Positions 33,932-58,428 of a DNA stretch of 64,000 nt are shown here, piece after piece (positions within the stretch are counted from its first letter, which is position 1; the number at the start of each line of letters is the position of its first letter). Source of the DNA: Candidatus Eiseniibacteriota bacterium (GTDB taxonomy: Bacteria; Eisenbacteria; RBG-16-71-46); NCBI GenBank assembly GCA_963717935.1, contig CAVQXP010000004.1, positions 1,376,001 through 1,440,000 on the forward strand, written 5' to 3'. The translations under genes and the position numbers were made by a program. The notes below the pieces were generated by a model that did no database searches, was not told the origin of the DNA, and saw nothing but the letters and a program-made list of their open reading frames with translations.

Positions 33932-34080
33932 ACCTGATTTCCTGGATGGGGCGACCGAGGCTGTGCCAGGCCGGGGCCGGTCCTGACGTGCTCAAGGAAT
34001 GGACGATTCTCGCCGTTCAGCACGGGTCTGGGCCCTCACCTGAGCAGGATGCGTCCTCCAATCTTGCGGACCACCGCAGG

Positions 34081-36807: not shown

Positions 36808-36811
36808 AGAA

Positions 36812-39916: not shown

Positions 39917-39977
39917 CTCCAGGCTCCTTTCCACTGCGGATGCACACCTGTGACGTCCGCTCGGGACGACCGGGGTC

Positions 39978-40255: not shown

Positions 40256-40404
40256 CGACGGCGGATGCCGGGCAAGCACAGGCCGGGGCCCCGCCGTGTC
40301 GAAGCCGTCACGCGAGTCTCTCCATCCGCGAGCCGCTCGCTCGGCCGGGGGGCGCTGCGGGAGAACTAGACGGCCCCGCGGGATTGCGCTACAAGTGCGC
40401 GGTC

Positions 40405-41851: not shown

Positions 41852-42754
41852 TCAGCCGAAGATCTCCCGCCGTGCTCGCTCGGTGATGGCCAGCACGGCG
41901 GGATGGCGGATCCGGCGCTCCCCGGTGATCGCGTAGAAGCGCTGCCGGATCGTGTCCACGCGGCCCACGACCTCCACCCGGTATCGCCTCCGGATCTCCC
42001 GCTCGTCGACCGAGGGCCCGGCGAACACTCCCCGCCCCGCTTCCCCAAAGAGCTTGAGCAGTGCGCTGTCGTCGATCTCGCCCATGACCTTGGGTCGTAT
42101 GCCCTGTGCAGCGAACCACTGCTCAAGAGCCCGGTAGAGCGCCGAATTCCTCCCCGGCAGCAGCACGGCCTCGCCGTTCAGAGAGGCCGGGAATCCCCTC
42201 CGAAGCCGCTGCGCGATCCTGCCAGTCGCGAAGAAGCTCGTGCCCGACTCGCCCAGCAAGTGGTTGAACAATCGCACGGAGAGACCCGGACCGGCCGGCG
42301 AATCGGAGAGGATCATGTCCAGGCCGTAGACTGCGAGTTCGGACAGGAATCCGTCGAGAGAGCGATCCTCCCGGCACACGACCCGGATGTCCTCCTGCTC
42401 CGCGAACACCGGATCGAGGATGCGTTGGACCATCGGTTTGGGCATCACGTCGAGCAGCCCGACGACGACACGTACGGGTCGCCCGGCTCTCTGACCCCGG
42501 AGTGTCTCCAGGAACTCCTGGCCGAGCGAGAAGATCTCGTCCGCATAGCGGAACGCGATCCGGCCCGCCTCCGTGAGCTCCAGTCGGCGCCCGCGTCGCG
42601 CGAAGAGCTTCTCGCCGAGCATGTCCTCGAAACGGTGGATCTGGCCGCTGAGCGTGGACTGCGCCAGCCGGAGCTGCTCGGCCGCCCGTGCGACCGTGCC
42701 CTCGCGGGCCACCATCCACACGTACAGCAGGTGCTGGTAGTTGAGTCGCTCCAT
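41852..42754 (-). CDS. nhaR: NhaR-type LysR transcriptional regulator
   Basis: LNYQHL.Y.W.VAREG, TLSGQI, YADEIFSLG, NHLLGE, DDSALLKLFGEAG.G, FYAIT.ERRI.HP. Confidence 0.9.
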   Translation of the reverse strand: MERLNYQHLLYVWMVAREGTVARAAEQLRLAQSTLSGQIHRFEDMLGEKLFARRGRRLELTEAGRIAFRYADEIFSLGQEFLETLRGQRAGRPVRVVVGLLDVMPKPMVQRILDPVFAEQEDIRVVCREDRSLDGFLSELAVYGLDMILSDSPAGPGLSVRLFNHLLGESGTSFFATGRIAQRLRRGFPASLNGEAVLLPGRNSALYRALEQWFAAQGIRPKVMGEIDDSALLKLFGEAGRGVFAGPSVDEREIRRRYRVEVVGRVDTIRQRFYAITGERRIRHPAVLAITERARREIFG

Positions 42755-42767
42755 GACCGGCAGGATA

Positions 42768-42815
42768 CATCGAGCCAGACGATGGATTCCATCGAAACTT
42801 TGTACTTATCGAAGT
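42768..42815. promoter_or_regulatory. Putative NhaR operator array
   Basis: CATCG-N7-CGATG dyad (T-N11-A) at 42768-42784 and two more ATCGAA half-sites at 42791 and 42808. Confidence 0.6.
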
Positions 42816-42961
42816 CCCGGGAGGCCGGCACACTGGGCTCGCGAGGGGCAAGAGCGCCGCGTGCGCAACGCGCACCATCCCCCGCGCCGCCGCCTCGTGA
42901 CACGGGAGCCGGAGCGCAAGCCGATCCGGCTCCCGCGGGCGGGGACCGAAGAGGGAATCGC

Positions 42962-43315
42962 ATGCAACTGGACATTCGGGGCTCGAACGTCCGTCTTTCG
43001 CAACGGATGCGCTCGTACGTCGAGCGCCGGGTGGGCTTCGCTCTTTCGCGCTTCGGGGCGCGCGTGGCCCGGGTTCGGGTTCGCCTCTCGGACGCGAACG
43101 GCCCCGGGCGGGAAGTGGATCGGGTCTGCAGAGTGATGACCACGGTGCCGGGCGCTACCCCGCTCGTGGTCGAGCAACGTGATCCCAGACTGACTCTGGC
43201 GGTCGATCATGCGCTGGACCGAGTGGCCCGCCAGGTGGCGCGCACGATGGAGCGGATTGACGCGGGCTGGGTGGATCCGAGTGGTCCGGGGACCCGGCGA
43301 GCGGGCCGCAGGTGA
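42962..43315 (+). CDS. HPF/RaiA-family ribosome-associated protein (short form)
   Basis: MQLDIRG.N..LS..MRSYVERR...ALSRF, VRVRLSDANGP...D..C, AVD.ALDR; GAGGGA RBS. Confidence 0.85.
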   Translation: MQLDIRGSNVRLSQRMRSYVERRVGFALSRFGARVARVRVRLSDANGPGREVDRVCRVMTTVPGATPLVVEQRDPRLTLAVDHALDRVARQVARTMERIDAGWVDPSGPGTRRAGRR

Positions 43316-43347
43316 AGCCGGTCTCGCTCGCGACGCGGAGGAGGCAA

Positions 43348-44217
43348 ATGACCATGCTGGCACCGTCCTCCCACGAGGGCCGGTCTGAGCGAAGTGACCT
43401 GTCTCCGCGGTTCTGGGACCAGGTTCGCCACAGCCGGCACCGCCTGCTGATGCTGGACTACGACGGCACCCTGGCGCCCTTTCGTGTGCAACGCAGCCAG
43501 GCGCGGATCCCGCCTCCGACACTTGCGGTTCTCCGCAGGCTCGTATCGAGCGGAACGACGAGGATCGCGATCGTCTCCGGTCGGCAGGTCCAGGAACTCG
43601 AGAGATTGACCGGCGGGCTTCCCGTGCGCCTGATCGGAGAGCATGGGTGGGAGGAGCGCTCCCCCGGAGGCGCGGTCCTGCGAAGAAGGCTGCCTCCGGG
43701 GGTGGCGCGGTGTCTGGAACAGGCGTCCCGGGCCGCCAGGGCCAGCGGTTGGGGCCCCCATCTCGAGTGCAAGCGCAGTTCGCTCGTGCTGCATACTCGC
43801 GGGCTCCCCGCAGACGAGGCCCGTGAGCTCGAGTTCGCCTGCGGGAGGTTGTGGAGGTCCTTCTTCGAGCGCGATGGCATTCGTCTGCAGCGGATCGACG
43901 GCGGGATTACGCTGCGCGCGTTCCACCGGCACAAGGGCACGGCGGTCGCGGAGCTGGTCGCCGGCTTGCTCCCGGGCACGCTCGCCGTCTACCTTGGCGA
44001 CGATACCGCGGATGAGGATGCCTTCCACGAACTCCTTGACTGTGGCGTGGCGATTCACGTGGGGGCAACGACTCGCTCCTCGGCGGCCCGCTTTCATCTG
44101 GGGTCCACGGACGATGTCCTCTCCTTTCTCGAACGGTGGGAGGCGACGATGCGGGACGGGGAAGCGGTGTCCGGCGCGCATGCGTGCGGGACGCGCTCGA
44201 TCGGCGGCCGGACATGA
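43348..44217 (+). CDS. otsB: Trehalose-6-phosphate phosphatase, copy 2
   Basis: LDYDGTLAP, VSGR, GEHGWE, HKG.AV, GDDTADEDAF; GGAGGAGG RBS. Confidence 0.9.
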   Translation: MTMLAPSSHEGRSERSDLSPRFWDQVRHSRHRLLMLDYDGTLAPFRVQRSQARIPPPTLAVLRRLVSSGTTRIAIVSGRQVQELERLTGGLPVRLIGEHGWEERSPGGAVLRRRLPPGVARCLEQASRAARASGWGPHLECKRSSLVLHTRGLPADEARELEFACGRLWRSFFERDGIRLQRIDGGITLRAFHRHKGTAVAELVAGLLPGTLAVYLGDDTADEDAFHELLDCGVAIHVGATTRSSAARFHLGSTDDVLSFLERWEATMRDGEAVSGAHACGTRSIGGRT

Positions 44218-45257
44218 ACCGTGAGGACGTGATCCGCTGGCTGCTCGGGGCCGCCATCGCAGCGGGCACCTGGCTCGTCGGCTGGCTGGTGCGCCGGTTC
44301 GCCATGGGGCGCCTGGCGCGGCTCCTCCGTCACACGCCGACCAACCTCGACGACATCGTGCTCGAGGTGCTTCGGCCTCATGTCCCGGTCTGGTTCCTCC
44401 TGCTCGGCGTCGTGGCCGCCGCGCGATTCGTCGAACCCGGAGCCCCGGCGCTCGCGATCGTGGACCGGGCGAGCCTGATCGTGGTGATCGCCTCGCTGAC
44501 GTTGGCCACGTCTTCGTTCCTCTCGCGGCTGATCGCGAGCGGTGCCGCCCGCTGGCCCGAGACGCTGCCCGCGACCACGCTGACCCAGAACGCCGTGCGG
44601 ATCGCGATCGTGGGGCTCGGCCTCCTGGTCGTCCTCTCGAACCTGGGCATCGCCGTCACGCCGCTCCTCACGGCGCTCGGCGTGGGTTCCCTGGCGGTGG
44701 CGCTGGCGCTGCAACCCACGCTCTCGAATCTCTTCGCCGGCTTCCACATCTCGTTCGCCCGGCAGATCCGCGTGGGGGACTACGTCGAGCTCGAGTCCGG
44801 GCAGCAGGGGTACGTCACGGACATCGGCTGGCGCTCCACGCAGATCCGCGAGCTTCCCAACAACATGATCATCGTGCCGAACGCGCGGATCGCGGAGATC
44901 ATCCTGAAGAACTACGCGCTCCCCGAGAAGGAGCAGGCGGCGCTCGTGCAGGTGGGCGTGAGCTACGGATCGAGTCTCCCGGTGGTCGAGCAGGTGACCA
45001 TCGAGGTCGCGCGCGAGGTGCAGCGCAGCGTGCCCGGAGCGGTCCCCGATTTCGAGCCGTTCGTCCGCTTTCACACCTTCGGCGACTCGTCCGTCAACTT
45101 CACGGTGATCCTCCGCGTGAAGGAATACGTCGACCGCCACCTGGTCACGCACGAGTTCGTGAAGCGGCTGCATCAGCGATATTTGGCGGAGGGGATCGAG
45201 ATCCCGTTCCCGCAACGGGTCGTGCATATCGCTTCCGCGGTTCCCGGGGAGTGTTAG
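44214..45257 (+). CDS. mscS: MscS-family mechanosensitive channel
   Basis: LGVGSLAVALALQPTLSNLFAG, GDYV, IGWRST, VPN, GIEIPFPQ. Confidence 0.93.
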   Translation: MNREDVIRWLLGAAIAAGTWLVGWLVRRFAMGRLARLLRHTPTNLDDIVLEVLRPHVPVWFLLLGVVAAARFVEPGAPALAIVDRASLIVVIASLTLATSSFLSRLIASGAARWPETLPATTLTQNAVRIAIVGLGLLVVLSNLGIAVTPLLTALGVGSLAVALALQPTLSNLFAGFHISFARQIRVGDYVELESGQQGYVTDIGWRSTQIRELPNNMIIVPNARIAEIILKNYALPEKEQAALVQVGVSYGSSLPVVEQVTIEVAREVQRSVPGAVPDFEPFVRFHTFGDSSVNFTVILRVKEYVDRHLVTHEFVKRLHQRYLAEGIEIPFPQRVVHIASAVPGEC

Positions 45258-45614
45258 GATACGGGCCGGGCTTCTCCCACGCGCGGCGTCGCGATCGGGG
45301 GGGCCGAGAGGAGGACCGCTGGATGATGCGCGGCGTCGGTGTCATGCTCGTCGTCATCCTCTCACCGGCCTACCACGCGGTTTGCGACGCGAACGCGCCG
45401 ATCCTGTCGACGGAGCCCGCCGGGCCCCGGCCGGCGCCTTCCGGGTTCCGTATCCGCAACCCGGGATAGGCGCGCGAATCCGATGCGGAGGGAACCGCCC
45501 GGGCACGTCGCCAGCCAGCCAGCACGTCCAGAGGAGGTGGGTCTCGTGGCCGGAACCTCAGGACCACCAGCCCGGGAGCCCGGAGGGTGCTCCCACGCGC
45601 GGGGCGGGAGGGCG

Positions 45615-47387
45615 GTGTCCCTCGGAACACTGATGGCGCTGCTGGCGGCCGGGATCCTGACGATCGGGATCGCGCGCGCCGACGGCGTCCGCGACGGAGA
45701 CCGGGCCTTCGAGGCGGGCCGGATCGAGGACGCGTTGAGATCCTACGAGCAGGCCGCCCGCGCGGGGAGCGCGGGAGGCCAGGCCGGGATCGGGCGGGTC
45801 TTCCTGCGGCGGGGCCGGTACGAGAAGGCGATGGAAGCCTTCCGTCGCGCGCAGGAGTTGGACCCGGACCTGGCGTTGGCCTACTACGGGGAGGGCGAGG
45901 TGCTTCGGCGCCAGGGCAGGTGCGCCGAGGCCATCCCGGCTTACGAGCGAGCGACCCGGATCAACCGCAAGTTCCCCGAGGCGCAACTCGGCCTGGGCAA
46001 CTGCCTCGTCGCCACGGGGCAGTTCGACCGGGGCATCGCGGAACTGGACAAGGGACTCGCGCGGGGACGGACGTGGGCGCCGCGGTTCCTGGTCGCGCGC
46101 GGAACGGCATGGATGTCGCGCGACTCCCTCCGGCGCGCGGGAATCGACTTCACGCGGGCGCGCGAGCTGGCGCCCGGCGACCCCTCGGTCCGAAGGGCCA
46201 TCGGGGACTTCTACGTGCAACGGGGCACCTGGGCACTGGCGATCCCCGAGCTGAGGGCCGCCGTGGCTCTCGATTCCAGCGACGCCGAGGCGCTGCACTC
46301 GCTCGCCCGGGCGCTCTTCTACACCCAGGACTACGACCAGGCGTTGGCGACCTATCGGTTGCTGACCACACGGTCCCCCGACTTTGCACCCGGGCAGCTC
46401 GGCCTGGGCGACCTCCTCTATCGCGCGGGGCCGGCCGATCCCCGGCGATACGCCGAGGCGAGGGGGCCGCTGGAGGAGTACGTGCGGCTGGAACCCGATG
46501 ACCCGAGAGGGTGGAGTCTTCTGGGACGCACCGGCTACCACCTGGGAGAGCGCGACACCGCGCTCGCCCGGATGCTCGAGGCGGAGCGGCTCGGGGACCA
46601 GAGCAAGGAGCTCCACCTCACGATGGGACTGGCCTATGCCAATCAGAGGGAATGGGACAAGGCGCTTGTCTCCCTCGAGAAGGGCGAGCCCGGGCCCCGC
46701 GAGTATCCGCTCCTCGCGCAGATCTACGACGTCACGGGGCATCCCCTGCAGGCCGACTCCGTCTACGGGCTCGTTCTTGCCCGGGACTCCACGTCGGCGG
46801 CGGCCGCCTTCGCCTTCAACCAGCGCGGGAAGCTCCACTTCCGGACCCAGGACTACGCCGGCGCCGAGCGTCTGCTCGAGCGCGCGACCTTCCTCGAGCC
46901 GGGGAACGGCGAAGCCTGGTTCTATCGCGGCCTCTCCCTGCGGGAGCTGGACCGTGATCCGGAGGCCCTGCATGCGCTTCGGGAAGCAGCCGCGATCGAC
47001 ACGGGCAAGGCCGACCGGTACTTCTGGCTCGGCGTACTCGCGGACCGCCAGAAGCAGACCGGTGACGCGCGGGTGGCATTCCGCAGGGCGGTCGATCTCG
47101 ATTCGACGAGCCAGCTGGCGAGCAAGTCCTACCGGCAGCTTGGATACTACCGGTTGCTGAAGAAGGAGTGGAGGGCCGCACTCCCGCTCCTGCAGCGGGC
47201 GGTGGCGCTCGATGAGCAGGATGCGCAGGCATGGCTCTGGCTCGCGCAGGCCCAGCAGAACGCGGGCAGTCGCGAGAAGGCCCGGGAATGTTACGAGCGT
47301 GTTCTCGTGCTCGATCCGGCCAGCGCCGCAGCCAGAAAGGGACTGAAGACACTCGGGGGTTCTCTTCCGGCGTCACCACGCAGGTAG
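45615..47387 (+). CDS. Exported TPR-repeat protein
   Basis: Signal-like N-terminus ending ARA, followed by many TPR units. GTG start after GGGAGG inferred. Confidence 0.8.
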   Translation: MSLGTLMALLAAGILTIGIARADGVRDGDRAFEAGRIEDALRSYEQAARAGSAGGQAGIGRVFLRRGRYEKAMEAFRRAQELDPDLALAYYGEGEVLRRQGRCAEAIPAYERATRINRKFPEAQLGLGNCLVATGQFDRGIAELDKGLARGRTWAPRFLVARGTAWMSRDSLRRAGIDFTRARELAPGDPSVRRAIGDFYVQRGTWALAIPELRAAVALDSSDAEALHSLARALFYTQDYDQALATYRLLTTRSPDFAPGQLGLGDLLYRAGPADPRRYAEARGPLEEYVRLEPDDPRGWSLLGRTGYHLGERDTALARMLEAERLGDQSKELHLTMGLAYANQREWDKALVSLEKGEPGPREYPLLAQIYDVTGHPLQADSVYGLVLARDSTSAAAAFAFNQRGKLHFRTQDYAGAERLLERATFLEPGNGEAWFYRGLSLRELDRDPEALHALREAAAIDTGKADRYFWLGVLADRQKQTGDARVAFRRAVDLDSTSQLASKSYRQLGYYRLLKKEWRAALPLLQRAVALDEQDAQAWLWLAQAQQNAGSREKARECYERVLVLDPASAAARKGLKTLGGSLPASPRR

Positions 47388-47542
47388 CCGAGCGGAACGG
47401 CCATCTCCAGCCGAGTCCCGCTCGGGAGGGCCGCCTGCCGTTCGCCGCTCTTCACGGAGGAGCAGCGCGACCGATGCCGAATGCAGCGTGGCCGCGCGCG
47501 CGGCCGACGCCGACGGCACGGAACGAAAGCGAGGGCATCACG

Positions 47543-48679
47543 ATGGCGATTCTCACTCGAGACCGGCTCCAGCCGCTGCTGAAGGTGGGGTCACGCCCCT
47601 GCATCTCTCTGTACATGCCGACGCACCGCCACCATCCCGGGACGGAGCAGGACCCCATCCGCTTCAGGAACGCTCTCAAGGAGGCCGAGCGGCTGTTGTC
47701 CGACCGCCATTCCCCGCAGGAGATTCGCAGCCTCCTCGACCCGGTGGAGGCCCTGCCGAACGTCGAGTTCTGGCGTCATCAGGCCGATGGGCTTGCGATC
47801 CTGCGCTCCCCGGACGTGCTGGAACAATTCCGGGTCCCGTTGAGCATGCCCGAACTCGTCGTGGTCGCGGAGAGCTTCCATGTCAGGCCACTGATCCGTT
47901 GCCTCAACTCGAACGAGCGCTACTTCCTGATCGCGATCACCCAGAACGGGGTCGGGGTGTACGAGGGGGCGATGACCTCCCTGACACCCACCGAGGTCCC
48001 GGGCCTGCCGGGCGGCCTGTCCGAGTTCTCGAGCAAGAAGAGGCGCGGCACGGCCCTGAGCGCGCATGCGACCGGTCGTGGCAGCGGCAGCCGTCAGGTG
48101 CATGCCGCCGGGGGTGCCGGGGCCCCACCGGAGGAGGTCCTCCTCCCGTTCTTCCGCGCGATCGATCGGGCCCTGCAGCGCGCGCTCCGGCACGACACGG
48201 CTCCCGTGATCCTCGCCGGAGTCGAGTACTACCTGCCCATCTACCGGCAGGTCAGTCACCTGAAGCGCCTGGCGGACGTGATCGTCACCGGCAGCCCGGA
48301 TGCGATGACTCTGGATGAGCTTCGATCCAGAGCCTGGCCCGTCGCCGAGACCGTCTTGCGCGGGAACGAGGACCGAGCGCTCGAGAAGTACTGGCGCGCC
48401 GCCGAGCGAGGGCGCACCCGGGAGCCCCTCGAGGACATCGTTCGCGAGGCCCGGCGCGGCCGGGTCCGGCGCCTCTTCCTCGCATCCGGGGTCCGGATCT
48501 GGGGAACGGTCGACCCGAACACCGGTCACATCCACCGGACGTCCGCACAGCAAGGCAGCCACGACGACGACGTCCTCGATGACGTGGCCGAAGCCGTGTT
48601 CCTGTACGGTGGTGACGTGATCACTCTTCCGGCCGAGCGCATGCCGAATGCGCAGGAGGTGGCGGCCGAGTTGCGCTGA
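47543..48679 (+). CDS. Bacterial aeRF1-superfamily protein (baeRF3/7-like, Balon-like)
   Basis: PCISLYMPTH, QDPIRFRN, FHVRPL, FFRAID, PVILAG, GRVRRL, DVLDD..E.V...GGDV, AAELR. Confidence 0.85.
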   Translation: MAILTRDRLQPLLKVGSRPCISLYMPTHRHHPGTEQDPIRFRNALKEAERLLSDRHSPQEIRSLLDPVEALPNVEFWRHQADGLAILRSPDVLEQFRVPLSMPELVVVAESFHVRPLIRCLNSNERYFLIAITQNGVGVYEGAMTSLTPTEVPGLPGGLSEFSSKKRRGTALSAHATGRGSGSRQVHAAGGAGAPPEEVLLPFFRAIDRALQRALRHDTAPVILAGVEYYLPIYRQVSHLKRLADVIVTGSPDAMTLDELRSRAWPVAETVLRGNEDRALEKYWRAAERGRTREPLEDIVREARRGRVRRLFLASGVRIWGTVDPNTGHIHRTSAQQGSHDDDVLDDVAEAVFLYGGDVITLPAERMPNAQEVAAELR

Positions 48680-48708
48680 CCGCCAGGGCACAACCTCGGA
48701 CTCAGACC

Positions 48709-50019
48709 ATGGGCATGACCACGAATCGGCTGGGAATCCTGGTGGCGAGCGGCGCGATCGCGTTGCTGGCACTGGCCTGCGCTCCCTCGCGGCCGGCGCG
48801 GGAGCGGGGCGCGACGCTCACGGTGATGCTGCCTCCAAGCGAGCGGCCCTTCTGGGAACCGATCGCTCGCGGCTTCGAGTGGGACCATCCTGGAACCCGC
48901 GTGGATCTCGTCGAAGGCCCGCAATCCACCGATCTGCGCGAGAACCTCTACACGGCTTCGTTGCTGGCCGGGGACCCGACGTTCGACCTCGTCTACATGG
49001 ACGTGACCTGGACGCCGAAGTTCGCCGCGGCCGGCTGGCTGCTGCCGCTCGACCCATGGCTCCCCGACGTCGAGCGGCGGCGATTCCTTCCGGCCGCGCT
49101 CGCCGCGGGGGAGTACCAGGGCAGGCTCTATCGCGTACCGGTGCGCACCGACGTCGGACTGCTCTACTTCCGCCGGGACCTGCTCGAGCGGGCCGGACTC
49201 CCCCCTCCGCGCAGCTTCGTGGAGCTGACGCGGACGGCCCGGGCCCTCCAGTCCCCACCCGGGATCTGGGGCTTCGTCTGGCAGGGCAAGCAATACGAGG
49301 GTCTGGTCTGCGCCTACCTGGAGGTGCTTCGCGGCCAGGGCGGGTTCTGGGTGGATCCTGTCTCGCTCGCGGTCGGGCTCGACCGTCCCGAGGCGGTGGC
49401 CGCTCTGTCGTTCCTCGCGCTCTGCCTTCGCCAGGAGCCCATCAGCCCGCCCGGCAGCACGACCTACCAGGAGGAGGAGAGCCGCCGGCTGTTCCAGGAT
49501 GGACGAGCGGTCTTCCTGCGCAACTGGCCCTACGTGTGGCAGCTTGCGCAGTCGGCCGGGTCGCCGGTACGCGGGCGGATCGGCGTCCTGCCCATGGTGC
49601 ACGCCCCCGGTGGGCGGCCCGCCGGCACTCTGGGTGGGTGGGGACTCGGCATCTCGGCTTTCAGCGGCCAGGCCCAGCTCGCCATGGAGTTCATCCGCGC
49701 CGTCACGTCGCTCGACGGCCAGCGGGCGCTGTGTGCGCCGACGGGCTACGCCCCCGCGCTCCAGGATGCGTACGCGGACCCCGAGCTGCTGGCGGCGAAT
49801 CCGTTTCTGGCGGAGCTCGAGAGGCTCCATGCGAACGCCGTGGCCCGGCCGTCCATCGCCCGGTACGCGCTCGCCTCCGACATCCTGCAGCGGCATCTGA
49901 GCGCCGTGCTCTCGGGCAGCGACGAGCCGGAGCACGCGTTGCGCGCGGCGGCCCGCGAGACCCGGGCGATGCTGGGCGTCCCCCGGGGCCGGAAGCTGCG
50001 AGCGGGTCCGGCCTCATGA
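48709..50019 (+). CDS. Trehalose/maltose-type ABC substrate-binding lipoprotein
   Basis: Lipobox ALAC; MDVTW, GFVWQGKQYEGLVC, RNWPY, TLGGW, as in TMBP-like proteins. Confidence 0.88.
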   Translation: MGMTTNRLGILVASGAIALLALACAPSRPARERGATLTVMLPPSERPFWEPIARGFEWDHPGTRVDLVEGPQSTDLRENLYTASLLAGDPTFDLVYMDVTWTPKFAAAGWLLPLDPWLPDVERRRFLPAALAAGEYQGRLYRVPVRTDVGLLYFRRDLLERAGLPPPRSFVELTRTARALQSPPGIWGFVWQGKQYEGLVCAYLEVLRGQGGFWVDPVSLAVGLDRPEAVAALSFLALCLRQEPISPPGSTTYQEEESRRLFQDGRAVFLRNWPYVWQLAQSAGSPVRGRIGVLPMVHAPGGRPAGTLGGWGLGISAFSGQAQLAMEFIRAVTSLDGQRALCAPTGYAPALQDAYADPELLAANPFLAELERLHANAVARPSIARYALASDILQRHLSAVLSGSDEPEHALRAAARETRAMLGVPRGRKLRAGPAS

Positions 50020-50903
50020 GAGCCAGGGTCTGGACCAGGGAGCGCCTGCTCCTGCTCGTGCCCGCGCTGCTGCTGCTGGCGCTGGTCGTGGCGCTCCCCA
50101 TCCTCCGCGTCGTGCAGCTCAGCCTGTGCCGGGTGGAGCTCCACGGGGGGATCGTCACGCAATGGGCCGGGCTCGACCAGTTCTGGCGGCTCTGGCAGGA
50201 CGGCCGGTGGTGGGCCGCGCTTCGCAACACCGCGTTGTTCACTGCCCTGTCGGTGGCGCTCGAGATGGCACTGGGCATCGCCTTCGCTCTGCTGCTCCAC
50301 CAGCGCTTCCGGGGCCGGGGCGGCGTGCGGGCCCTGATGATGCTGCCCTGGGCCTTGCCGACCGCCGTGATGGCCCTGGCCTGGGCGTGGATCTTCAACG
50401 ACTCGTTCGGCGTGCTCAACGACCTGCTCGAACATCTGGGACTCATCGCGCGCCCGGTGGCCTGGCTGGGCGGGCCGGCCACCGCGATGCTGGCGCTGGT
50501 GATCGCGGACGTATGGAAGACCACTCCCTTCGTCGCGCTCATCGTGCTGGCGGGGCTGCAGGGCATCCCGGAGCAGGTGCTGGAGGCGGCCCGCGTGGAT
50601 GGTCTGTCCGCGGGACAGCGGCTGAGGCGGGTGGTGCTGCCGCTGCTGGCGCCCTCGCTGCTCGTGGCCCTCGCCTTCCGCACGGTGCAGGCCTACGGGG
50701 CCTTCGACCTGCCCTACGTCATGACGGGTGGTGGCCCGGGAGGGGCGACCGAGACGGTGGCCCTGTACGCGTACCAGAACTACTTCCGCTATCTCGAGTT
50801 CGGGTACGGGTCCGCCGTCGCCGTGCAGGGGGCCCTGCTGGCCGCCCTGCTGGTGGCCGCGATGATGAGCCTCGCGGGCGCGCGGGAACGGAGGGGGACG
50901 TGA
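50016..50903 (+). CDS. Carbohydrate ABC permease (MalF/SugA-like)
   Basis: PWALPT, DVWKTTPF, EAA loop (EAARVDG), TGGGPG. Confidence 0.92.
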   Translation: MRARVWTRERLLLLVPALLLLALVVALPILRVVQLSLCRVELHGGIVTQWAGLDQFWRLWQDGRWWAALRNTALFTALSVALEMALGIAFALLLHQRFRGRGGVRALMMLPWALPTAVMALAWAWIFNDSFGVLNDLLEHLGLIARPVAWLGGPATAMLALVIADVWKTTPFVALIVLAGLQGIPEQVLEAARVDGLSAGQRLRRVVLPLLAPSLLVALAFRTVQAYGAFDLPYVMTGGGPGGATETVALYAYQNYFRYLEFGYGSAVAVQGALLAALLVAAMMSLAGARERRGT

Positions 50904-51763
50904 GGAGCGCCGTCCCGAGGGCCGGAGGAGGCCGCGCGCGCCTGGCCGGAGGACTGCTCGCGCTGGCCGTCGCGCTGCTGCTGGCGTGGAGCCTGGCGCC
51001 GGCGATCTGGCAGGCCCTCACGGCGCTCAAGCCGGACGCCCAGATCACGCACGTGCCCACGATCTACCTGCCGCACCCGCCGACCTGGCGACACGTCGCG
51101 GCCCTGTGGGAGCGCAAGCCCTTCGGGCTCTACCTGGCGAACAGCGCCTGGGTCTCGGCCTGGGCGACCGTGCTGTGCCTGGGCGTCGCCTCGCTGGCCG
51201 CGGCGGCCCTCGCGCGGCTTCCGGGCCGCGGCCGCGAAGGGCTCCTGCTGGCCCTGCTGGTGGTCTCCCTGTTCCCGCCCATCCTTCTGCTCTTCCCTCT
51301 CTACGAGGGCGTGCGGGCGGTCGGTTGGATCAATCACCCGCTGGCCCTCGTGCTGCCGTACGCCGCACTGAACCTGCCGCTCGCCGTGTGGGTGCTGGAG
51401 AGCGCGCTGCGCGCCCTGCCGGTCGAACTCGACGAGGCCGCGCGGCTCGATGGCCTGCCCGCGCTGGGACGCCTGTGGCGCATCCACCTGCCCCTCGCGC
51501 TGCCGTCGCTGGCGACGGCGGGGATCCTGGTCTTCATCTTCTGCTGGAACGAGTTCATGCTGTCCCTGACCTTCATGACGCGCGACGCGAACAAGACCGT
51601 GACCGCGGGGATCGCCAGCGTCAGCGGCGCCTCGCTCTACGAGATCCCCTGGGGCCAGTTGTCGGCCGCGATCGTCATCGCCACCGCACCGCTGATCGCC
51701 CTGGTACTGTTGTTCCAGCGGCGGATCGTCTCGGGGCTGACCCGGGGCGCGCTCAAGGGCTAG
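50900..51763 (+). CDS. Carbohydrate ABC permease (MalG/SugB-like)
   Basis: EAARLDG, FIFCWNEF, FQRRIVSGLTRGALKG. Confidence 0.92.
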   Translation: MRSAVPRAGGGRARLAGGLLALAVALLLAWSLAPAIWQALTALKPDAQITHVPTIYLPHPPTWRHVAALWERKPFGLYLANSAWVSAWATVLCLGVASLAAAALARLPGRGREGLLLALLVVSLFPPILLLFPLYEGVRAVGWINHPLALVLPYAALNLPLAVWVLESALRALPVELDEAARLDGLPALGRLWRIHLPLALPSLATAGILVFIFCWNEFMLSLTFMTRDANKTVTAGIASVSGASLYEIPWGQLSAAIVIATAPLIALVLLFQRRIVSGLTRGALKG

Positions 51764-51765
51764 CC

Positions 51766-52845
51766 ATGACCGAACTGCAGGGCCGGGACCTGACCAAGAT
51801 CTTCCCTGACGGGACCCGCGCGCTCGACGGGGTCTCCTTCGTGGCGCGCCCCGGGCGCGTGCTGACCCTGCTGGGGCCTTCGGGTTGTGGCAAGTCGACG
51901 CTGCTGCGCATCGTGGCCGGGCTCGACCGCGCCACGTCCGGGACCCTTCGCCTGGACGGCGAGTGTCTTGACGACGTCCCCGCCGGGCGGCGCGGTGTAG
52001 GGCTGGTGTTCCAGAACTACGCCCTCTACCCTCATCTCACCGTGCGGGGCAACCTGTCGCTGGCGCTCGAGACACAGCGGGTCCCGCGTCGGGAGGTGAC
52101 CGCGCGCGTGCGCGAGACCGCTGCGCTGCTCGGCATCCTGGAGCTCCTCGAGCGGCGCCCGGGGCAGCTGTCCGGGGGCCAGCAGCAACGCGTGGCGCTG
52201 GGGCGCGCGCTGGTGCGCAGGCCGCGCCTGTATCTGCTCGACGAGCCGCTCTCGAACCTGGACGCGCTGCTGCGGGAGGGCATGCGGGCCGAGCTGAAGG
52301 CCCTCTTCGCGCGCGTCGGCGCGACGGTGATCTACGTGACGCACGATCAGACCGAGGCGATGAGCCTGTCGGACGACCTGGCCGTGATGCGCTCGGGACG
52401 GATCCTCCAGTGTGGAGCGCCGCTCGAGGTCTACCGGCGGCCAGCCGACGTGTTCGTCGCCACCTTCGTCGGCAGCCCGCGCATGACGGTCTGGCACGGG
52501 CACCGCGATGGAGACGCGCTCGCGTGCCGCGGCGTACGGGTGCCGGTGCCGGCCGGCCTGCAAACCGGGGGCCGGCTCGCCGTGGGCATCCGGCCGGAGG
52601 ACGCCGAGGTCTCGCCCCGTCCCCTGGAGGGAGGGTGGGCGGCGCAGCGCACGGTGATGGAGCCCCTGGGGTCGAGAGTGCTGATCACCGTGAGAGTCGG
52701 GGGCGAGGACGCGCGGGTCCTGGTGGAGCCGGCCGACTGGCCGGAGGCCCTGTGGATGCGCTGGCCACCCGGTCGACTACACTGGTTCGATGCCGAGAGC
52801 GGCGCGCGGCTCGACGCCACGGACCACGGGCGGGAGAGGATCTGA
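51766..52845 (+). CDS. Carbohydrate ABC ATPase (MalK/SugC-like)
   Basis: GPSGCGKS, VFQNYALYPH, LSGGQ, DEPLSNLD, THDQ. Confidence 0.95.
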   Translation: MTELQGRDLTKIFPDGTRALDGVSFVARPGRVLTLLGPSGCGKSTLLRIVAGLDRATSGTLRLDGECLDDVPAGRRGVGLVFQNYALYPHLTVRGNLSLALETQRVPRREVTARVRETAALLGILELLERRPGQLSGGQQQRVALGRALVRRPRLYLLDEPLSNLDALLREGMRAELKALFARVGATVIYVTHDQTEAMSLSDDLAVMRSGRILQCGAPLEVYRRPADVFVATFVGSPRMTVWHGHRDGDALACRGVRVPVPAGLQTGGRLAVGIRPEDAEVSPRPLEGGWAAQRTVMEPLGSRVLITVRVGGEDARVLVEPADWPEALWMRWPPGRLHWFDAESGARLDATDHGRERI

Positions 52846-52846
52846 C

Positions 52847-54127
52847 ATGGTCGAACCCACGATCCTGCGTGAGGACGTCAGGGAGCAACTGGACACCATC
52901 GGCGGGGCCGACATCGTCGTCGGCATCCCGTCTTACAACAACGCCCGCACCATCGCCCACGTCGTCCAGGCGGTGACGGCGGGGCTGGCCAAGTACTTCC
53001 CGACGCGACGCGCCGTGCTGGTCAACTCCGACGGTGGCTCCAAGGACGGCACGCCGGCGCTGGTGGCGAGCGCCGAACTCGGGACGACCCGGGCCATCCT
53101 CCTGACCCAACCGCCGCCGCCGGTCCACAAGGTCATCACGGCGTACCAGGGCCTGCCGGGGAAGGGCAGTGCCTTCCGCACCATCTTCGAGATCGCGCAC
53201 CGCCTGGAGGCCCGCGCCTGCGCGGTCGTCGATTCCGACCTCCGGAGCATCACGCCGGAGTGGCTCCAGCTCCTGCTGGCCCCGGTGACGGATGAGGGCT
53301 TCGACTATGTCTGTCCGCTCTACGCGCGGCACAAGTTCGACGGCACGATCACGAATTCCATCGTCTATCCCCTGGTCCGTGCCCTCTACGGGCGCCGCAT
53401 CCGGCAGCCCATCGGCGGGGACTTCGGCTTCTCGGGGCGGCTGGCCGCGCACTTCCTCCGCCACGACGTCTGGCAGAGCGACGTGGCGCGTTTCGGGATC
53501 GACATCTGGATGACGACCACGGCGCTGGTGGGCGACTTCCGCGTGTGCCAGTCCTACCTGGGCGCGAAGATCCACGACGCGAAGGACCCCGGGGCCCACC
53601 TGAGCACGATGCTCATGCAGGTCACCGGCTCGCTGTTCGCCCAGGTGGAGGCCCACGCACAGCACTGGCTCGGCGTGGAAGGCTCCGAGCCGGTGCCCGA
53701 GTTCGGCTTCCGCTATGAGGTCGGACTCGAGCCGGTCGCCGTGGATGTCGGGCGGATGGTCCGCGCCTACGACCAGGGTGTGCGGGACTTCGTCTCCCTG
53801 TACGCCCAGTTCCTCGACGCGGAGACCCGCCGCGACCTCGAGAGGCTCGCCGGGCAGGCGCCCGGGACGTTCCGATGCCGACGGACCTCTGGGTGCGGAC
53901 GATCTACGCGTTCGCGCTCGCCTACCACCTGCGGCGCCTGAACCCGGAGCACCTGCTGCGAGAGTCTCACGCCGCTCTACCTCGGGCGCACGGCGTCCTG
54001 GGTCAACCAGGCCGCCGACTACGGGGCCGAGGAAGTGGAAGTCGAGCTGAACGCGCTGTGCGAGCGCTTCGAGGCGCTCAAACCACATCTCGCCGACGCC
54101 TGGCGGGAAGGGAGGATGCCATCATGA
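52847..54127 (+). CDS. Glucosylglycerate synthase (Ggs)/mannosylglycerate synthase-like GT2, with two indels near the 3' end
   Basis: GIPSYNN, DGGS.DGT, GKGSA, DSDL, RHKFDGTITN, RQPIGGDF, FGIDIW, KIHD. The C-terminus PLYLGRTASW lies in another frame. Confidence 0.72.
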
Positions 54128-54828
54128 TTGCCGTGACGATGAGTTCGCTGTGGGACCCGATCACCCGGTTTCTGCAGCGGAGCGAGGGCCTGCTGCCCGT
54201 GTTGCTGGCCATCGCCATCGTGCTGGTGGCCGGCCTGCTGCTGGCCTGGCTGGCCGACGCGCTGTTGCGCTGGGTCCTGAGGGCCGCTGGTTTCGACCGC
54301 ATCGCGCACCGCCCGCGCGTGTCGGATTCGCTGCGCCGCGCCGGCCTGCGGCAGCAGCCGTCCGTGCTGGTGGGGCAGCTGGTCCGCTGGCTGATCGTGA
54401 TCCTGACGCTGCTCGGCGCTCTGTCGATCCTGAGCGCCGAGGCGACCGATGTCGTGCTCGCTGCGATGGTGACCTACCTGCCGCGACTCGTCGCGGGCTT
54501 GCTCCTGCTCGTGGCCGGCTACGCCGTGAGCATCTTCGCGGGGCGCAGCGTCCTGATCTGGTCGGTCAACGCGCGGGTCCAGGGTGCGCGCTGGCTGGCC
54601 GGCGGCGTGCGGCTGCTGGTGGGCATCTTCTTCGCCGCGCTGGCACTGGAGAACCTGGGGTTCGGGCGTGACATCGCGCTGGTGGTGCTGGCGATCCTGC
54701 TCGGCGGGGGCGTGCTCGCAGCCGCCCTGGCCTATGGGCTGGCCGGCAAGGACCTCGCCCGCCAGTCCCTCGATCGCATGACTCGCGAGGCCCGTGGCGA
54801 GGATGACGAGACGCTGTCCCACCTCTAG
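54124..54828 (+). CDS. Small conserved-TM-helix (CmpX-like) membrane protein, copy 2
   Basis: YLPRLVAGLLLL, ALENLG, ALAYGLAGKD; paralogous to 36099-36807. Confidence 0.8.
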   Translation: MIAVTMSSLWDPITRFLQRSEGLLPVLLAIAIVLVAGLLLAWLADALLRWVLRAAGFDRIAHRPRVSDSLRRAGLRQQPSVLVGQLVRWLIVILTLLGALSILSAEATDVVLAAMVTYLPRLVAGLLLLVAGYAVSIFAGRSVLIWSVNARVQGARWLAGGVRLLVGIFFAALALENLGFGRDIALVVLAILLGGGVLAAALAYGLAGKDLARQSLDRMTREARGEDDETLSHL

Positions 54829-54843
54829 TCCGGAGGTCGCGCC

Positions 54844-56054
54844 ATGAGCGATTTCTTCCAGAACGGCGTCATCACGACGCTGCACCGGCTCGGCTCGGCT
54901 CCGCCCGACAAGATCGAGGCGGAACTGCGTCTGCACAGCCGCACCAACCCGGTCACCCTGATCATCCCGTGCCTCATCACCGAGCTCGAGCGGCACGCGA
55001 TTCGCAAGATCGTGGAGGAGTTGACGAAGGTCGACTACCTGGACGAGATCGTGATCCCGATCGGGCGGGCGGACCGGTCATCAGTTCGAGTATGCCCGCC
55101 GCTTCTTCGCGCCGCTGGGATCGCGTTGCCGGCTCGATCTGGATCGAAGGCGAGAGGGTCCAGGACTTCATCCGGCTGCTGCTCGACAACCGGCTCGACA
55201 TCGGGCCCCCCGGCAAGGGGCGCGCCACCTGGCTCTCCATCGGCTACGTGCTGGCCGGCAATCGCAGCAAGGCCATCGCGCTCCACGACGCGGACATCGT
55301 TTCCTTCGATCGGTCGCTGGTCGGCCGGCTCTGCTACCCGCTGGTGCATCCCAGTCTCGGCTACGAGTACTCGAAGGGCTACTACGCCCGCGTGACCGAT
55401 CGCCTGCACGGACGGGTCACGCGGCTGTTCCTCACGCCGCTGGTCCGGTCGCTGATCCAGGTCGTCGGATCGGTGCCCTTCCTGCGATACCTCGACAGCT
55501 TCCGCTACCCTCTGTCGGGGGAGTTCGCGATGCATGCGGACCTCGCCCGCTACGTCCGCATCCCGGGGGACTGGGGACTGGAGATCGGGATGCTCGCCGA
55601 GGTCTACCGGAACACCTCCCTGCGCCGGGTCTGTCAGGTGGACGTGGCCGAGAACTACGAGCACAAACACCAGGCCCTCTCGCAGGACGATGCTTCGGGC
55701 GGCCTCAACCGCATGTCGGGGGACATCTGCAAGTCGGTGCTGCGGACGCTGGCCATGGAGGGAGTGGTCTTCGGGCCGGGGTTCTACACCACGCTCAAGG
55801 TGACCTACCTGCGGCACGCCCAGGACGCCATCCGCAGCTACCACGACGATGCGGTGACCAATGGTCTGCTGTTCGACCGCCACTCCGAGACGATGGCGGT
55901 GGAGGTGTTCCTCAACGCCCTCGAGCGGGGCTGCGAGGAGTTCGAGCGGGCCCCGCTGGCGCTGACCGGGCTGCCCAACTGGAACCGGGTCACGTCCGCG
56001 ATCCCGGACTTCCTCCCGCGCTATCGCGAGGCGATCGATGCCGACAACGCCTAG
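54844..56054 (+). CDS. gpgS: Glucosyl-3-phosphoglycerate synthase-type glycosyltransferase, with two indels at about 55080-55135
   Basis: MSDFFQNGVITTLH, GKGR..W, HDADI, KGYYARV, GRVTRL, RYPLSGEF, WGLEIG, YEHKHQ, PNWNRV. Confidence 0.78.
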
Positions 56055-56897
56055 CCCGCGCCCCGCTCCGGGCCTGGTGGTGTTCACCGACCTGGACGGG
56101 ACGCTGCTCCGCCACGAGGACTACGATTGGTCCGCGGCGCGGGAGGCCCTGGCCGAGCTGGCGCGGCGCCGCGTCCCGCTGGTGATCGCGAGCAGCAAGA
56201 CGCGCGCCGAGATCGAGGCATGGCGACGCCGGATCGGGAATCAGGATCCATTCATCAGCGAGAACGGAGGCGCGCTCTACGTGCCGCCCGGCTCGGTGCC
56301 GCGGCCCGATCCCGGGGAGCGTGCCCGCGGAAGGGTATCTGCGCGTCGAGTTCGGCACGCCGTACGCCCGTCTGCGCGATGCCCTGAAGCTCCTGGCCCG
56401 CGACCTCGGGGTCGGCATGAAGGGATTCGGCGACATGGAAGCCGGCGAGATCGCGCGCCTGACCGGGCTGTCCGGCGAGGACCTCGATCTCGCCCGGCGC
56501 GGGAGTACGACGAGCCCTTCGTGCCGGAAGGCCCGTGGCGCGGCGCAGGAGGAGGCCCGACTGGAGGAGATGGCCGGCGCGCTCGGCCTGCGGGTGACGC
56601 GCGGCGGCCGCTTCCACCACCTGATCGGCCCGAACAGCAAGGGCGAGGCGGCCCGTCTCCTGATGTCGGGCTACCGGGCGGGCAGCGAGTCCGTCGCGTC
56701 GCTCGGTCTGGGCGACGGTCCCAACGATCTGGAGCTGCTGCTGGCCGTGGACCACCCGGTCGTGGTGGCCCGTCCCGACGGCACGCACGCGCCCGAGCTG
56801 CGGGCCGGGACTGCCGCCGCACGCGCACTTCACTCGCGGAGCGGGCCCGGAGGGGTTCGCGGAGGCGGTGCTCGATTGTCTGGCGCGGCTCCCGTAG
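56038..56897 (+). CDS. mpgP: Mannosyl/glucosyl-3-phosphoglycerate phosphatase (HAD IIB), frameshifted
   Basis: FTDLDGTLL, SSKTRAE, ENGG, REYDEPF, GGRFHH, KG.A, LGDGPND across frames. Confidence 0.82.
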
Positions 56898-58251: not shown

Positions 58252-58419
58252 CCCTCCTCCTCGCGTGCAGCGCGGACGGCCCCGGACCTCCGCATGTTGG
58301 CGCATCGCGGGCGTCGAATCCAGCCGGCAGTCGAAGCGCGATGGGAGACCGGCAGGTGCGGGCCCGGTGGGGGAGAGGCCCCCGGCCAGCGGGGTGACGT
58401 AGGAGCGCTCCGCGTCCCG

Positions 58420-58428
58420 TGCTAGGCT
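58420..58428 (+). promoter_or_regulatory. Extended -10-like element TGCTAGGCT
   Basis: About 78 bp upstream of the treT copy 2 start. Confidence 0.45.

Follow-up and report, generated by a model that had tools for sequence, protein, structure and literature searches.

A minus-strand gene for an NhaR-type LysR regulator faces a co-directional run of plus-strand genes (42962-56897) in a 64,000-nucleotide stretch of DNA from Candidatus Eiseniibacteriota bacterium (the window, to which all positions refer). By Pfam and NCBIfam searches the run reads, in order, short hpf, otsB, mscS, a TPR gene, a Balon homologue, an ABC importer, a GT-A enzyme, a TM protein, gpgS and an MPGP-family phosphatase; every gene named in a preliminary description of this DNA is present, in the order and orientation given there. 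The evidence supports reading these genes as an operon-like array beside an NhaR-family regulator, and the arrangement is more than chance, because two congeners of other species (G110 and G107) keep the same gene order at 59-88% protein identity. Our fuller reading, in which our confidence is about evenly balanced, is that 13 genes form an accessory osmostress operon, about 14 kb long, in an uncultured sediment bacterium. Among named organisms its closest relatives are Candidatus Eisenbacteria MAGs, and marine-sediment metagenomes hold near-identical DNA.

The regulator and the genes that face it

The regulator (41852..42754, minus strand, 300 aa) matches the curated NhaR model NF008284 at 247.1 bits (cut-off 219, aligned over 1-294 of 299 positions) as well as PF00126 and PF03466, and is 85-87% identical to its counterparts in G110 and G107. 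It is the sole copy over the NF008284 cut-off in the genome, and the model is specific: among 14 control genomes, E. coli alone passes. The regulon of E. coli NhaR includes nhaA, osmC and pgaABCD. Here, NhaA was rejected as the antiporter beside nhaR, since the neighbour is a convergent CPA2-type Na+/H+ (cation/proton) exchanger and the 93%-complete genome contains no NhaA family match. The exchanger (40552..41733, plus strand, start approximate) matches PF00999 at 202.5 bits over residues 205-589 of the ORF 39940-41733 and the CPA2 model TIGR00932 at 169.7 bits, below its cut-off; G110 carries a Na_H_Exchanger gene at the equivalent position (locus L074). Because NhaR is the only family member over the cut-off and no NhaA was found, the divergent gene is the most likely NhaR target.

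That gene encodes a short HPF/RaiA-type factor of 117 aa (42962..43315, plus strand) with 41.1 bits to PF02482 (cut-off 23.7) and 36.1 bits to TIGR00741, below the cut-off of 40.9. It is the second of two paralogues matching PF02482 in the genome; the canonical hpf lies on another contig in the order rpoN-hpf-hprK (locus L001, context Sigma54-HPF-HPr kinase). After 32 nt follows otsB2, a trehalose-6-phosphate phosphatase paralogue (43348..44217, plus strand; TIGR00685 86.7 bits, cut-off 68.05) whose ATG is preceded by the motif GGAGGAGG, and its stop is overlapped by 4 nt by the start of an MscS-type mechanosensitive channel gene (44214..45257, plus strand; PF00924, PF21082 and PF21088). The channel is 74% identical to those of the congeners and 67% to that of G002, a member of a second genus. 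Then comes a TPR-repeat protein (45546..47387, plus strand), matched by many TPR families, with a GTG start preceded by GAGGAGG and 66-67% identity to the congeners; by eye, its hydrophobic N-terminal segment reads like a signal peptide, so that the protein is likely exported. The gaps noticed earlier on either side of this gene, at 45.3-45.6 kb and 47.4-47.5 kb, are real, and measure 288 nt (45258-45545) and 155 nt (47388-47542).

Beyond the second gap lies a putative ribosome hibernation factor of the Balon family (bacterial aeRF1-like; 47543..48679, plus strand, 378 aa), which matches PF18845 at 107.2 bits. Against NF052287 it scores 181 bits (cut-off 330) in an alignment covering 2-360 of 361 positions; HPF and Balon thus both fall under the NCBIfam equivalog cut-offs. 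Against the structure 8rd8_B in the PDB the match extends over the full length (9-374 versus 5-364, E 4.5e-25); the protein contains neither GGQ nor NIKS, and it has THRHHP where 8rd8_B has THREHP. None of the eight junctions in the stretch from Balon to the phosphatase exceeds 29 nt, and a scan of 41.7-58.7 kb found no terminator-like site on the plus strand.

The divergent gap, the proposed mechanism and its alternatives

Between nhaR and hpf lie 207 bp, and the LysR-type dyad noted there earlier is present as an LTTR box, CATCG-N7-CGATG (a T-N11-A dyad, 42768..42784), 14-30 nt from the nhaR start codon. The box aligns gap-free with its equivalents in 10 other NhaR-upstream regions (labelled Eisenbacteria, Myxococcaceae, Polyangia, Binatia, Desulfurellales, Desulfobulbaceae and Deltaproteobacteria) and is visible in many of the 79 such regions compared; box and second conserved element, AAACTTTGTACTTATCGA, are gap-free across all 11 aligned sequences. 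This second element and a candidate hpf promoter occupy 42795..42834 on the plus strand, the promoter consisting of a -35 TTATCG (42806-42811), a 17-nt spacer and a -10 CACACT (42829-42834). We infer this assignment from aligned relatives, for example TTGTCC-17-TATAAC in L180; a strict sigma-70 scan found no promoter. The presumed hpf leader contains an inverted repeat, GGGAGCCGG...CCGGCTCCC (42904..42934, plus strand), whose stem is longer in G110 and whose 3' arm is present in G107, and the leader folds with an unremarkable energy (z -0.83).

Drawing on this layout, we propose that the NhaR-family regulator binds the T-N11-A box and, upon an ionic or osmotic upshift (possibly sensed through sodium), would activate rather than repress a weak promoter about 65 nt downstream of the box. 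Transcription would then read hpf-otsB-mscS and probably continue, as a single transcript, through all the remaining genes of the run, from the TPR gene to the phosphatase. The short HPF and Balon would park ribosomes at two compatible sites, by analogy with the structure of RaiA and Balon from P. urativorans; trehalose and glucosylglycerate would be made or imported; and MscS would serve as the release valve on downshift.

How far such control could extend is constrained by the box itself. The composite of box and second element matches the 3.0-Mb genome at its own site and at one other, which sits in G+C-rich sequence and which we read as chance; a genome search found no composite site upstream of the TPR gene, Balon or the other osmolyte genes. 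Since the site occurs only once, control of the distal genes would need read-through across the gaps of 288 and 155 nt, which could themselves hold independent promoters. Furthermore, because the box is so close to the nhaR start and the operator-like block is also found upstream of NhaR homologues without hpf, it may serve autoregulation only.

The neighbourhood survey suggested earlier bears on the same question. Of eight genomes sampled from the genus, three have the full run; among 86 others in the family, Balon turned up in three. In 80 NhaR loci drawn from a genome collection, two of them from the congeners, our own HMM placed an HPF-family ORF within 4 kb of NhaR in 19; the nhaR-hpf adjacency presumed to exist elsewhere thus recurs outside the genus, under several taxonomic labels (18 of 78 loci, mostly Myxococcota), and is divergent and immediate in 10 of the 19. 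Three further genomes of the family have a Pfam-confirmed NhaR-hpf pair (L087, L095 and L099). However, an HMM built from this Balon clade found no Balon-family ORF within 4 kb of any of the 80 loci. The island in G002 brings together genes for OtsA, OtsB, MscS, TreT, a Balon 60% identical to ours, a ClC channel and a CPA2 exchanger, and the TPR gene is missing from it. Taken as a whole, the idea of an NhaR-controlled system joining hibernation to osmolytes gains from the operon-like array, the box, the two congeners, the recurrent NhaR-hpf pair and the company of Balon with mscS and trehalose genes in G002, and loses from the lack of a composite NhaR site before the TPR gene and Balon, from the scarcity of the full run and of Balon in the genomes surveyed, from the sub-cut-off scores of HPF and Balon, and from the variety of other genes that lie divergent to NhaR homologues (listed below).

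These observations raise the question of whether the run is one regulatory unit at all. It is possible, if rather doubtful, that its genes were inherited together as an osmoadaptation island and are served by several independent promoters. NhaR would then control itself and at most hpf-otsB-mscS, and other signals would govern the TPR gene, the block that runs from Balon to the phosphatase, and the trehalose genes on the flanks; the genes would be neighbours because accessory stress genes tend to move and be retained as a group. The two gaps fall exactly where such blocks would split, and no second composite site exists in the genome to tie the blocks together. The G002 MscS-Balon pair adjoins a TetR gene, with neither NhaR nor hpf, and the cargo behind NhaR-hpf differs elsewhere (Hsp20-GroES-GroEL, TerC, a glycosyltransferase, a P-type ATPase). 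Moreover, 32-62 kb is full of osmolyte genes on both strands. Downstream of the run, and outside it, Pfam and NCBIfam identify a MOFRL glycerate kinase (56917-58593, minus), TreT (58419-59855, plus) and TreZ (59852-61735, plus; TIGR02402 654 bits, cut-off 538.8). Upstream, tblastn with the G002 island proteins marks a minus-strand cluster (32123..39273) of a ClC-CBS chloride channel (32123-33979), a TM msc-helix protein (36104-36825), otsA (36870-38458; PF00982 in three frames) and otsB1 (38509-39273), together with a TreT-like fragment (34795-35004, TreT_GT1); its otsB1-otsA pair is separate from otsB2. Against a set of independently controlled blocks, the congeners are packed tighter (in G110, as read from the frames, mscS overlaps the TPR gene and about 57 nt separate the latter from Balon), which leaves internal promoters little space; the scan turned up no terminator-like site on the plus strand; and the 13-gene order is kept at a protein identity of only 59-88%.

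A different signal is conceivable but unlikely: the run could be a dormancy or desiccation module which prepares for non-growth through hibernation factors and the glass-forming sugars trehalose and glucosylglycerate, the NhaR-family regulator sensing another cation, pH, cold or general envelope stress. NhaA is absent, Balon was discovered under cold and stationary-phase stress (in the sections of PMC10901736 covered), and NhaR homologues elsewhere have other divergent neighbours, namely TerC, an M48 peptidase, P-type (cation) ATPases, superoxide dismutase, desaturases and ice-binding proteins, besides the chaperones. The osmotic response that we prefer is instead favoured by the CPA2 exchanger and MscS that flank the regulator, by the marine-sediment occurrence of the DNA and by the specificity of the NhaR model.

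Sugar import and glucosylglycerate synthesis

The distal part of the run begins with an ABC importer of the trehalose/maltose type (48709..52845, plus strand) that comprises a solute-binding protein (48709-50019), two permeases (50016-50903 and 50900-51763) and an ATPase (51766-52845), with internal junctions of -4, -4 and 2 nt. Structures matched by the solute-binding protein are 1eu8, a trehalose/maltose-binding protein (E 7.9e-84), and MalE3 6dtq (E 7.1e-86). The gene earlier called ggs-like (52847..53941, plus strand) is no more than a GT2/GT-A glycosyltransferase (PF00535, 30.7 bits), distantly related to GpgS and MGS: it scores 48 bits against the GpgS model NF010496, below the cut-off, its nearest Atlas clusters are labelled GT2, MGS_GT and GpgS, and it has no sequence match in the PDB. 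A membrane protein with MscS-type conserved TM helices follows (53875..54828, plus strand; PF05552 and NF033912 weak, below cut-off); two assembly indels, at 53873 and 53962, leave its start uncertain.

The last two genes stand where they were predicted, both out of frame in the assembly. The first, gpgS, encodes a glucosyl-3-phosphoglycerate synthase of the Methanococcoides/Persephonella type (54844..56054, plus strand), which matches NF040724 in two frames; extra bases lie near 55076-55078 and 55135, where GC3 switches frame, and both congeners have intact frames of 407 codons. The second is an MPGP-family HAD phosphatase (56038..56897, plus strand), likely a glucosyl-3-phosphoglycerate phosphatase, whose N-terminal 80 residues match TIGR01486 and whose intact G110 orthologue scores 223.4 bits (cut-off 164.75); neither the congeners nor a short-read contig have its extra base near 56305-56308. 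These frameshifts are assembly errors, since the extra bases occur neither in short-read contigs nor in the two congeners; isolated extra bases relative to the congeners also occur at 57400, 58016 and 59387. That the two genes, each split over two or three frames, are pseudogenes, leaving the glucosylglycerate branch dead and no longer tied to hibernation, is very improbable and largely refuted, as short-read contigs 97-100% alike omit the bases at 53962, 55078, 55135 and 56305, the congeners miss them too, GC3 stays at coding level throughout the shifts, and at 35.4-38.4 kb the assembly departs from both congeners by some 30 isolated 1-nt insertions, a pattern that fits long-read error rather than decay.

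Comparison with known systems

Each part of the run belongs to a known type, and the combination of hibernation factors, osmolyte genes and an NhaR-type regulator is undescribed. The claim of novelty made earlier holds for the full combination and not for its core, as earlier papers describe Balon together with RaiA/HPF in stress and osmotic operons (PMC6514570 and PMC10901736, as far as their relevant passages go). In those passages, Balon and RaiA occupy one and the same ribosome, Balon genes belong to operons for stress responses, osmotic ones included, with the osmotic-stress genes OsmC and OsmY among their neighbours (Helena-Bueno et al. 2024, PMC10901736), and HPF genes are linked with baeRF-1 (Burroughs and Aravind 2019, PMC6514570). 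The terms LysR and NhaR have no occurrence in PMC6514570 or in the preprint 10.1101/2025.11.04.686544, and go unmentioned in 12 of the 17 operon or neighbour passages of PMC10901736, the portion covered. Like the operons in these passages, our run encodes an aeRF1 homologue of the Balon family together with a short HPF/RaiA-type factor, in a single stress cluster whose genes all point the same way; unlike them, it sets the two 4.2 kb apart with otsB, mscS and the TPR gene between, extends into a sugar importer and glucosylglycerate synthesis, and faces a divergent NhaR-family regulator.

With E. coli the run shares the regulator family, by a curated model over its cut-off, and the tie of a cation/osmotic regulator to a ribosome hibernation gene: according to the relevant part of PMC10003395, NhaR of E. 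coli binds at the promoters of rmf and rsd, and RMF levels rise when nhaR is deleted. Here, in contrast, there is no nhaA, the hibernation target would be an HPF paralogue rather than RMF, and the regulator is divergent from its presumed target. Because the rise in RMF is opposite in sign to activation, the sign of control may differ here.

The tpsp-glycosyltransferase-msc operon of Thermoproteus tenax, as excerpted from PMC3634074, likewise joins trehalose synthesis to a mechanosensitive channel and so pairs synthesis with emergency release, whereas compatible-solute clusters of this kind with MscS come, in the excerpted text, without hibernation factors or an NhaR-type regulator. Finally, the gpgS/gpgP pathway of the Persephonella and Methanococcoides type, in the corresponding passages of PMC3736172, has the same succession of an NF040724-type GpgS and an MPGP-family phosphatase with a further glycosyltransferase nearby. 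In our run that gene pair is instead embedded in a hibernation and transport operon, and the extra enzyme is GT2/GT-A by sequence, not assignable to Ggs, MggA or MggS.

Gene content and integrity of the run

We assigned gene identities through Pfam and NCBIfam model matches, and every gene named in a preliminary description of this DNA is recovered, in the order it gave. The regulator, on the minus strand (41852-42754), is an NhaR-type LysR protein that exceeds the cut-off of NF008284 (247.1 bits against 219, aligned over 1-294 of 299 positions) and also matches PF00126 and PF03466; among 14 control genomes, E. coli alone passes the NF008284 cut-off. Divergent from it lie hpf (42962-43315, 117 aa; PF02482, 41.1 bits, cut-off 23.7), otsB (43348-44217; TIGR00685 equivalog, 86.7 bits, cut-off 68.05), mscS (44214-45257), a TPR protein gene (45546-47387), a homologue of the hibernation factor Balon (47543-48679), an ABC importer (48709-52845), a GT2/GT-A glycosyltransferase (52847-53941), a membrane protein with MscS-type helices (53875-54828), gpgS (54844-56054) and an MPGP-family phosphatase (56038-56897), which closes the run. 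The junctions from hpf to the phosphatase measure, in order, 32, -4, 288, 155, 29, -4, -4, 2, 1, -67, 15 and -17 nt. Both gaps that had been flagged are thus real (288 nt between mscS and the TPR gene, 155 nt between the TPR gene and Balon), and apart from them the run is tightly packed. Neither of these gaps nor the nhaR-hpf spacer has a further copy in the genome. The 288-nt spacer (45258-45545) is unique, with no counterpart in the two congeneric species (G110 and G107), where the mscS and TPR frames overlap; a small lipoprotein frame spotted there by eye was dropped, as it contains a stop codon.

The hpf gene of the run is the second genomic copy, the canonical one lying in an rpoN-hpf-hprK arrangement. 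Its product scores 36.1 bits against TIGR00741, under the equivalog cut-off of 40.9, and by its sequence it is a divergent paralogue and a putative ribosome factor. The Balon homologue (378 residues) aligns full-length with chain B of PDB entry 8RD8 (phmmer E 4.5e-25, residues 9-374 against 5-364 of 369), which we take as P. urativorans Balon on the strength of the 2024 paper (PMC10901736), the PDB title being uninformative. It reaches 181.2 bits against NF052287 (aligned over 2-360 of 361 positions), below the 330-bit equivalog cut-off. GGQ and NIKS motifs were sought in its 378 residues and neither is present, and its THRHHP segment aligns with THREHP of 8rd8_B; we assume that the H-P of this segment corresponds to the published Balon HP motif.

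The importer is predicted to be of trehalose/maltose type, its solute-binding protein being closest to the trehalose/maltose binders 1eu8 (E 7.9e-84) and 6dtq (E 7.1e-86). The TPR protein begins with a hydrophobic segment that, by reading of the sequence and with no predictor, looks like a signal peptide. For the glycosyltransferase the label 'ggs-like' had been proposed, which is too specific: a PDB sequence search gives no match, the Atlas labels are generic only (GT2, MGS_GT, GpgS), and the enzyme would be placed only as a distant GpgS/MGS-like GT-A relative.

In the assembly (3.0 Mb in 5 contigs, 93% complete, about 70% G+C; the window is 1376001-1440000 of contig C4), gpgS and the phosphatase gene are out of frame. 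Compared with the two congeners, isolated extra bases occur at 53961, 55076, 55135 and 56308, and a base is missing at 53874. Marine-sediment metagenome runs (X1-X4) contain short-read contigs that are 97-100% alike, and such contigs cover all five indel sites and lack the indels at each: those of X1, X3 and X4 are without the extra bases, placed by that comparison at 53962, 55078, 55135 and 56305, and have an A added after 53873. Compared with the congeners, further isolated single-nucleotide insertions occur at 57400, 58016 and 59387, and some 30 more, again isolated and absent from both species, lie at 35.4-38.4 kb (35400-38450), over otsA and its neighbours. Because the frameshifts are absent from congeners and short-read contigs, and because so many similar isolated insertions lie nearby, we attribute them to long-read assembly error; the insertions look like the residual indel error that breaks gene calls. 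A reading of gpgS and the phosphatase gene as pseudogenes is rejected on the same evidence. In G110 both genes are intact: gpgS gives 363.9 bits against GpgS_Meth over 2-399 of 402 positions (under the strict cut-off of 700), and the phosphatase gives 223.4 bits against TIGR01486 (cut-off 164.75).

The surroundings are also rich in osmolyte genes. From 39.3 down to 32.1 kb (32123-39273) the minus strand carries otsB1, otsA, a TM msc-helix protein gene, a TreT-like fragment and a ClC-CBS chloride channel gene, and downstream of the run lie glycerate kinase, TreT and TreZ genes; the run is therefore set within an osmolyte region of about 30 kb. An Rfam scan of the whole window gives no match in the region of the run. 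Its sole match is at 3037-3178, to group II intron domains D1-D4 (RF02003), at 50 bits against a gathering score of 49.

The nhaR-hpf spacer

LysR-type dyads had been noted in the divergent gap, and a T-N11-A box, CATCG-N7-CGATG, is indeed found at 42768-42784, followed by a second conserved element, AAACTTTGTACTTATCGA, at 42795-42812. The first 60 nt of the spacer, counted from the nhaR start codon, are near-identical in the three species, and the remainder diverges. No gaps are needed to align the two elements with regions upstream of NhaR that carry the labels Myxococcaceae, Polyangia, Binatia, Desulfurellales and Desulfobulbaceae, the box keeping an ungapped register across all 11 sequences of this alignment. 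Taken together as one pattern, the two elements match the genome twice, here and on contig C2 in G+C-rich sequence, and we read the latter match as chance.

How might these elements be placed relative to a promoter of hpf? In relatives the second element terminates in a -35-like hexamer, and a -10-like hexamer follows 17-18 nt on (for example TTGTCC-17-TATAAC). By our reading, the equivalents here are TTATCG and CACACT (42829-42834), a putative promoter from which transcription would begin at about 42841, with the box at about -65; the box fits that position only if the proposed -10, CACACT, is real. The resulting arrangement would correspond, again in our reading, to the layout classical for LysR regulators, here with a -10 that is weak and depends on the activator. 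A strict sigma-70 scan returns zero promoter-like sites, and just three terminator-like sites are found, all on the minus strand and not above chance.

The same block could equally be the promoter of nhaR itself together with an autoregulatory site. Both elements are discernible in many of 79 NhaR-upstream regions, with hpf and with other genes as neighbours alike, and the near-identical 60 nt are those next to the nhaR start codon; the promoter-like hexamers that follow the second element in relatives are what the reading as an hpf promoter draws on.

The presumed hpf leader (42835-42975) has an ordinary folding energy (z -0.83). It contains a 9-bp inverted repeat, GGGAGCCGG...CCGGCTCCC, at 42904-42934, which G110 keeps with a longer stem and of which G107 has the 3' arm.

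Conservation in relatives and pairing elsewhere

The closest named relatives of the genes in this genome are Candidatus Eisenbacteria MAGs. In the two congeners the whole gene order is kept, spread over several short contigs, at 59-88% protein identity and with tighter packing than here, as the TPR-Balon gap shrinks to about 57 nt. A close NhaR is absent from the other five genomes of the wider genus sample, one of them a single contig, and gpgS is found in G110 and G107 only. Queried with the Balon protein, the phylum sample of 201 genomes gives matches in 55; among other genomes of the family 3 of 86 have one, and among those of the genus in this sample 2 of 6. One Balon, 60% identical, lies in another genus of the family (G002) within a different island of similar theme, which carries genes for a CPA2 exchanger, a ClC-CBS channel, TreT and the TM protein, an OtsA gene divergent from that of OtsB, then TetR, MscS and Balon; this island is without NhaR, hpf and the TPR gene. 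The minus-strand osmolyte cluster upstream of the run mirrors the G002 island. Elsewhere in the class, Balon is common in another family (33 of 41 genomes), where its gene points away from one that encodes two ABC ATPase domains and may specify an ABC-F-type translation factor. This divergent arrangement is seen at 7 of 11 loci fetched from the class's other families, the 7 being those from family f7 (L061-L063, L065, L066, L069 and L070, at about 9500-12900 of each locus).

Of 88 other genomes of the family, 38 have an NhaR homologue. Among 30 fetched family loci, a divergent hpf is confirmed by Pfam in G110 and three more genomes (L087, L095 and L099), and in two of these three a zinc-ribbon gene and TerC come after hpf. 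At L095, L099 and L101 (from G064, G071 and G198) the gene facing hpf-zinc-ribbon (PF13453)-TerC encodes an NhaR paralogue of lower similarity (45-47% identity), and TerC also comes after hpf at NhaR loci L180 and L182, labelled Deltaproteobacteria.

The best 80 NhaR loci of the genome collection are mostly from Myxococcota (48-59% identity), two of them being those of G110 and G107. An HPF-family frame, detected with our own HMM, lies within 4 kb in 19 of the 80; ten are flagged as divergent and adjacent, and Pfam confirmed five of those submitted. By rough inference, chance would put an hpf in an 8.9-kb stretch at well under 1% of loci, a figure to be read with the genomes not being independent samples. 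No Balon appears within 4 kb of these 80 loci, either by tblastn or with an HMM trained on 18 Balon sequences of the clade, which distant baeRF families could escape. Neighbouring frames were chosen with filters on GC3 and length that lose genes of small size or unusual composition, so that the neighbour tallies are lower bounds. The cargo behind hpf varies (Hsp20-GroES-GroEL, TerC, glycosyltransferase, P-type ATPase), and the genes opposite other NhaR homologues encode TerC, M48 peptidases, cation ATPases, superoxide dismutase, desaturases or ice-binding proteins.

Interpretation and comparison with known systems

The best-supported core of these observations is a pair made up of an HPF paralogue and a regulator of the NhaR family, which one genus extends with Balon and with genes for solute synthesis, uptake and release into an operon-like run. 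An NhaR-controlled system joining hibernation to osmolytes, as originally proposed, is plausible and supported in part. NhaR probably controls at least hpf-otsB-mscS; whether it drives the whole run we regard as evenly balanced. More tentatively, and with the odds rather against it, NhaR-HPF may be an old switch that shuts down translation upon cation or osmotic stress, with this genus having captured Balon and solute genes into one transcript, so that hibernation would serve as a programmed, sodium-induced arm of osmoadaptation. The NhaR-HPF pair occurs under several taxonomic labels with a conserved putative operator, and under such a scheme hibernation would not be a by-product of starvation.

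Ribosome hibernation is usually studied under starvation or cold. In this run two different putative hibernation factors share an operon-like arrangement with genes for producing, taking up and releasing compatible solutes and, should salt induce these genes together, translation would be deliberately paused while cells restore turgor. For the HPF paralogues that occur under various taxonomic labels, the observations supply a concrete candidate regulator and cis element open to testing; the run is also a natural system for asking how HPF and Balon divide labour.

The NhaR regulator family is known for sodium sensing. Several parts of the arrangement have precedents: baeRF-1 genes were tied to HPF genes in 2019 (PMC6514570), Balon was seen on ribosomes alongside RaiA in 2024 and its genes most often adjoin RaiA and also adjoin osmotic-stress genes (PMC10901736), non-canonical hpf genes often neighbour Balon according to a 2025 preprint (10.1101/2025.11.04.686544), and trehalose operons with a mechanosensitive channel exist (PMC3634074). 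In the literature searched, with partial coverage, we found no paper on NhaR paired with hpf, on an operator of that pair or on an operon joining hibernation to solutes; such neighbourhoods may be listed in supplementary data to the Balon papers. In E. coli, the promoters of rmf and rsd are bound by NhaR, and deletion of nhaR raises RMF (PMC10003395). The antiporter gene beside nhaR encodes a convergent CPA2 exchanger, and a search of the 93%-complete genome for the NhaA family (PF06965) gives no match. Whereas NhaR of E. coli is an NhaA-linked regulator, the NhaR studied here belongs to a genome with no NhaA match and has a CPA2 neighbour instead.
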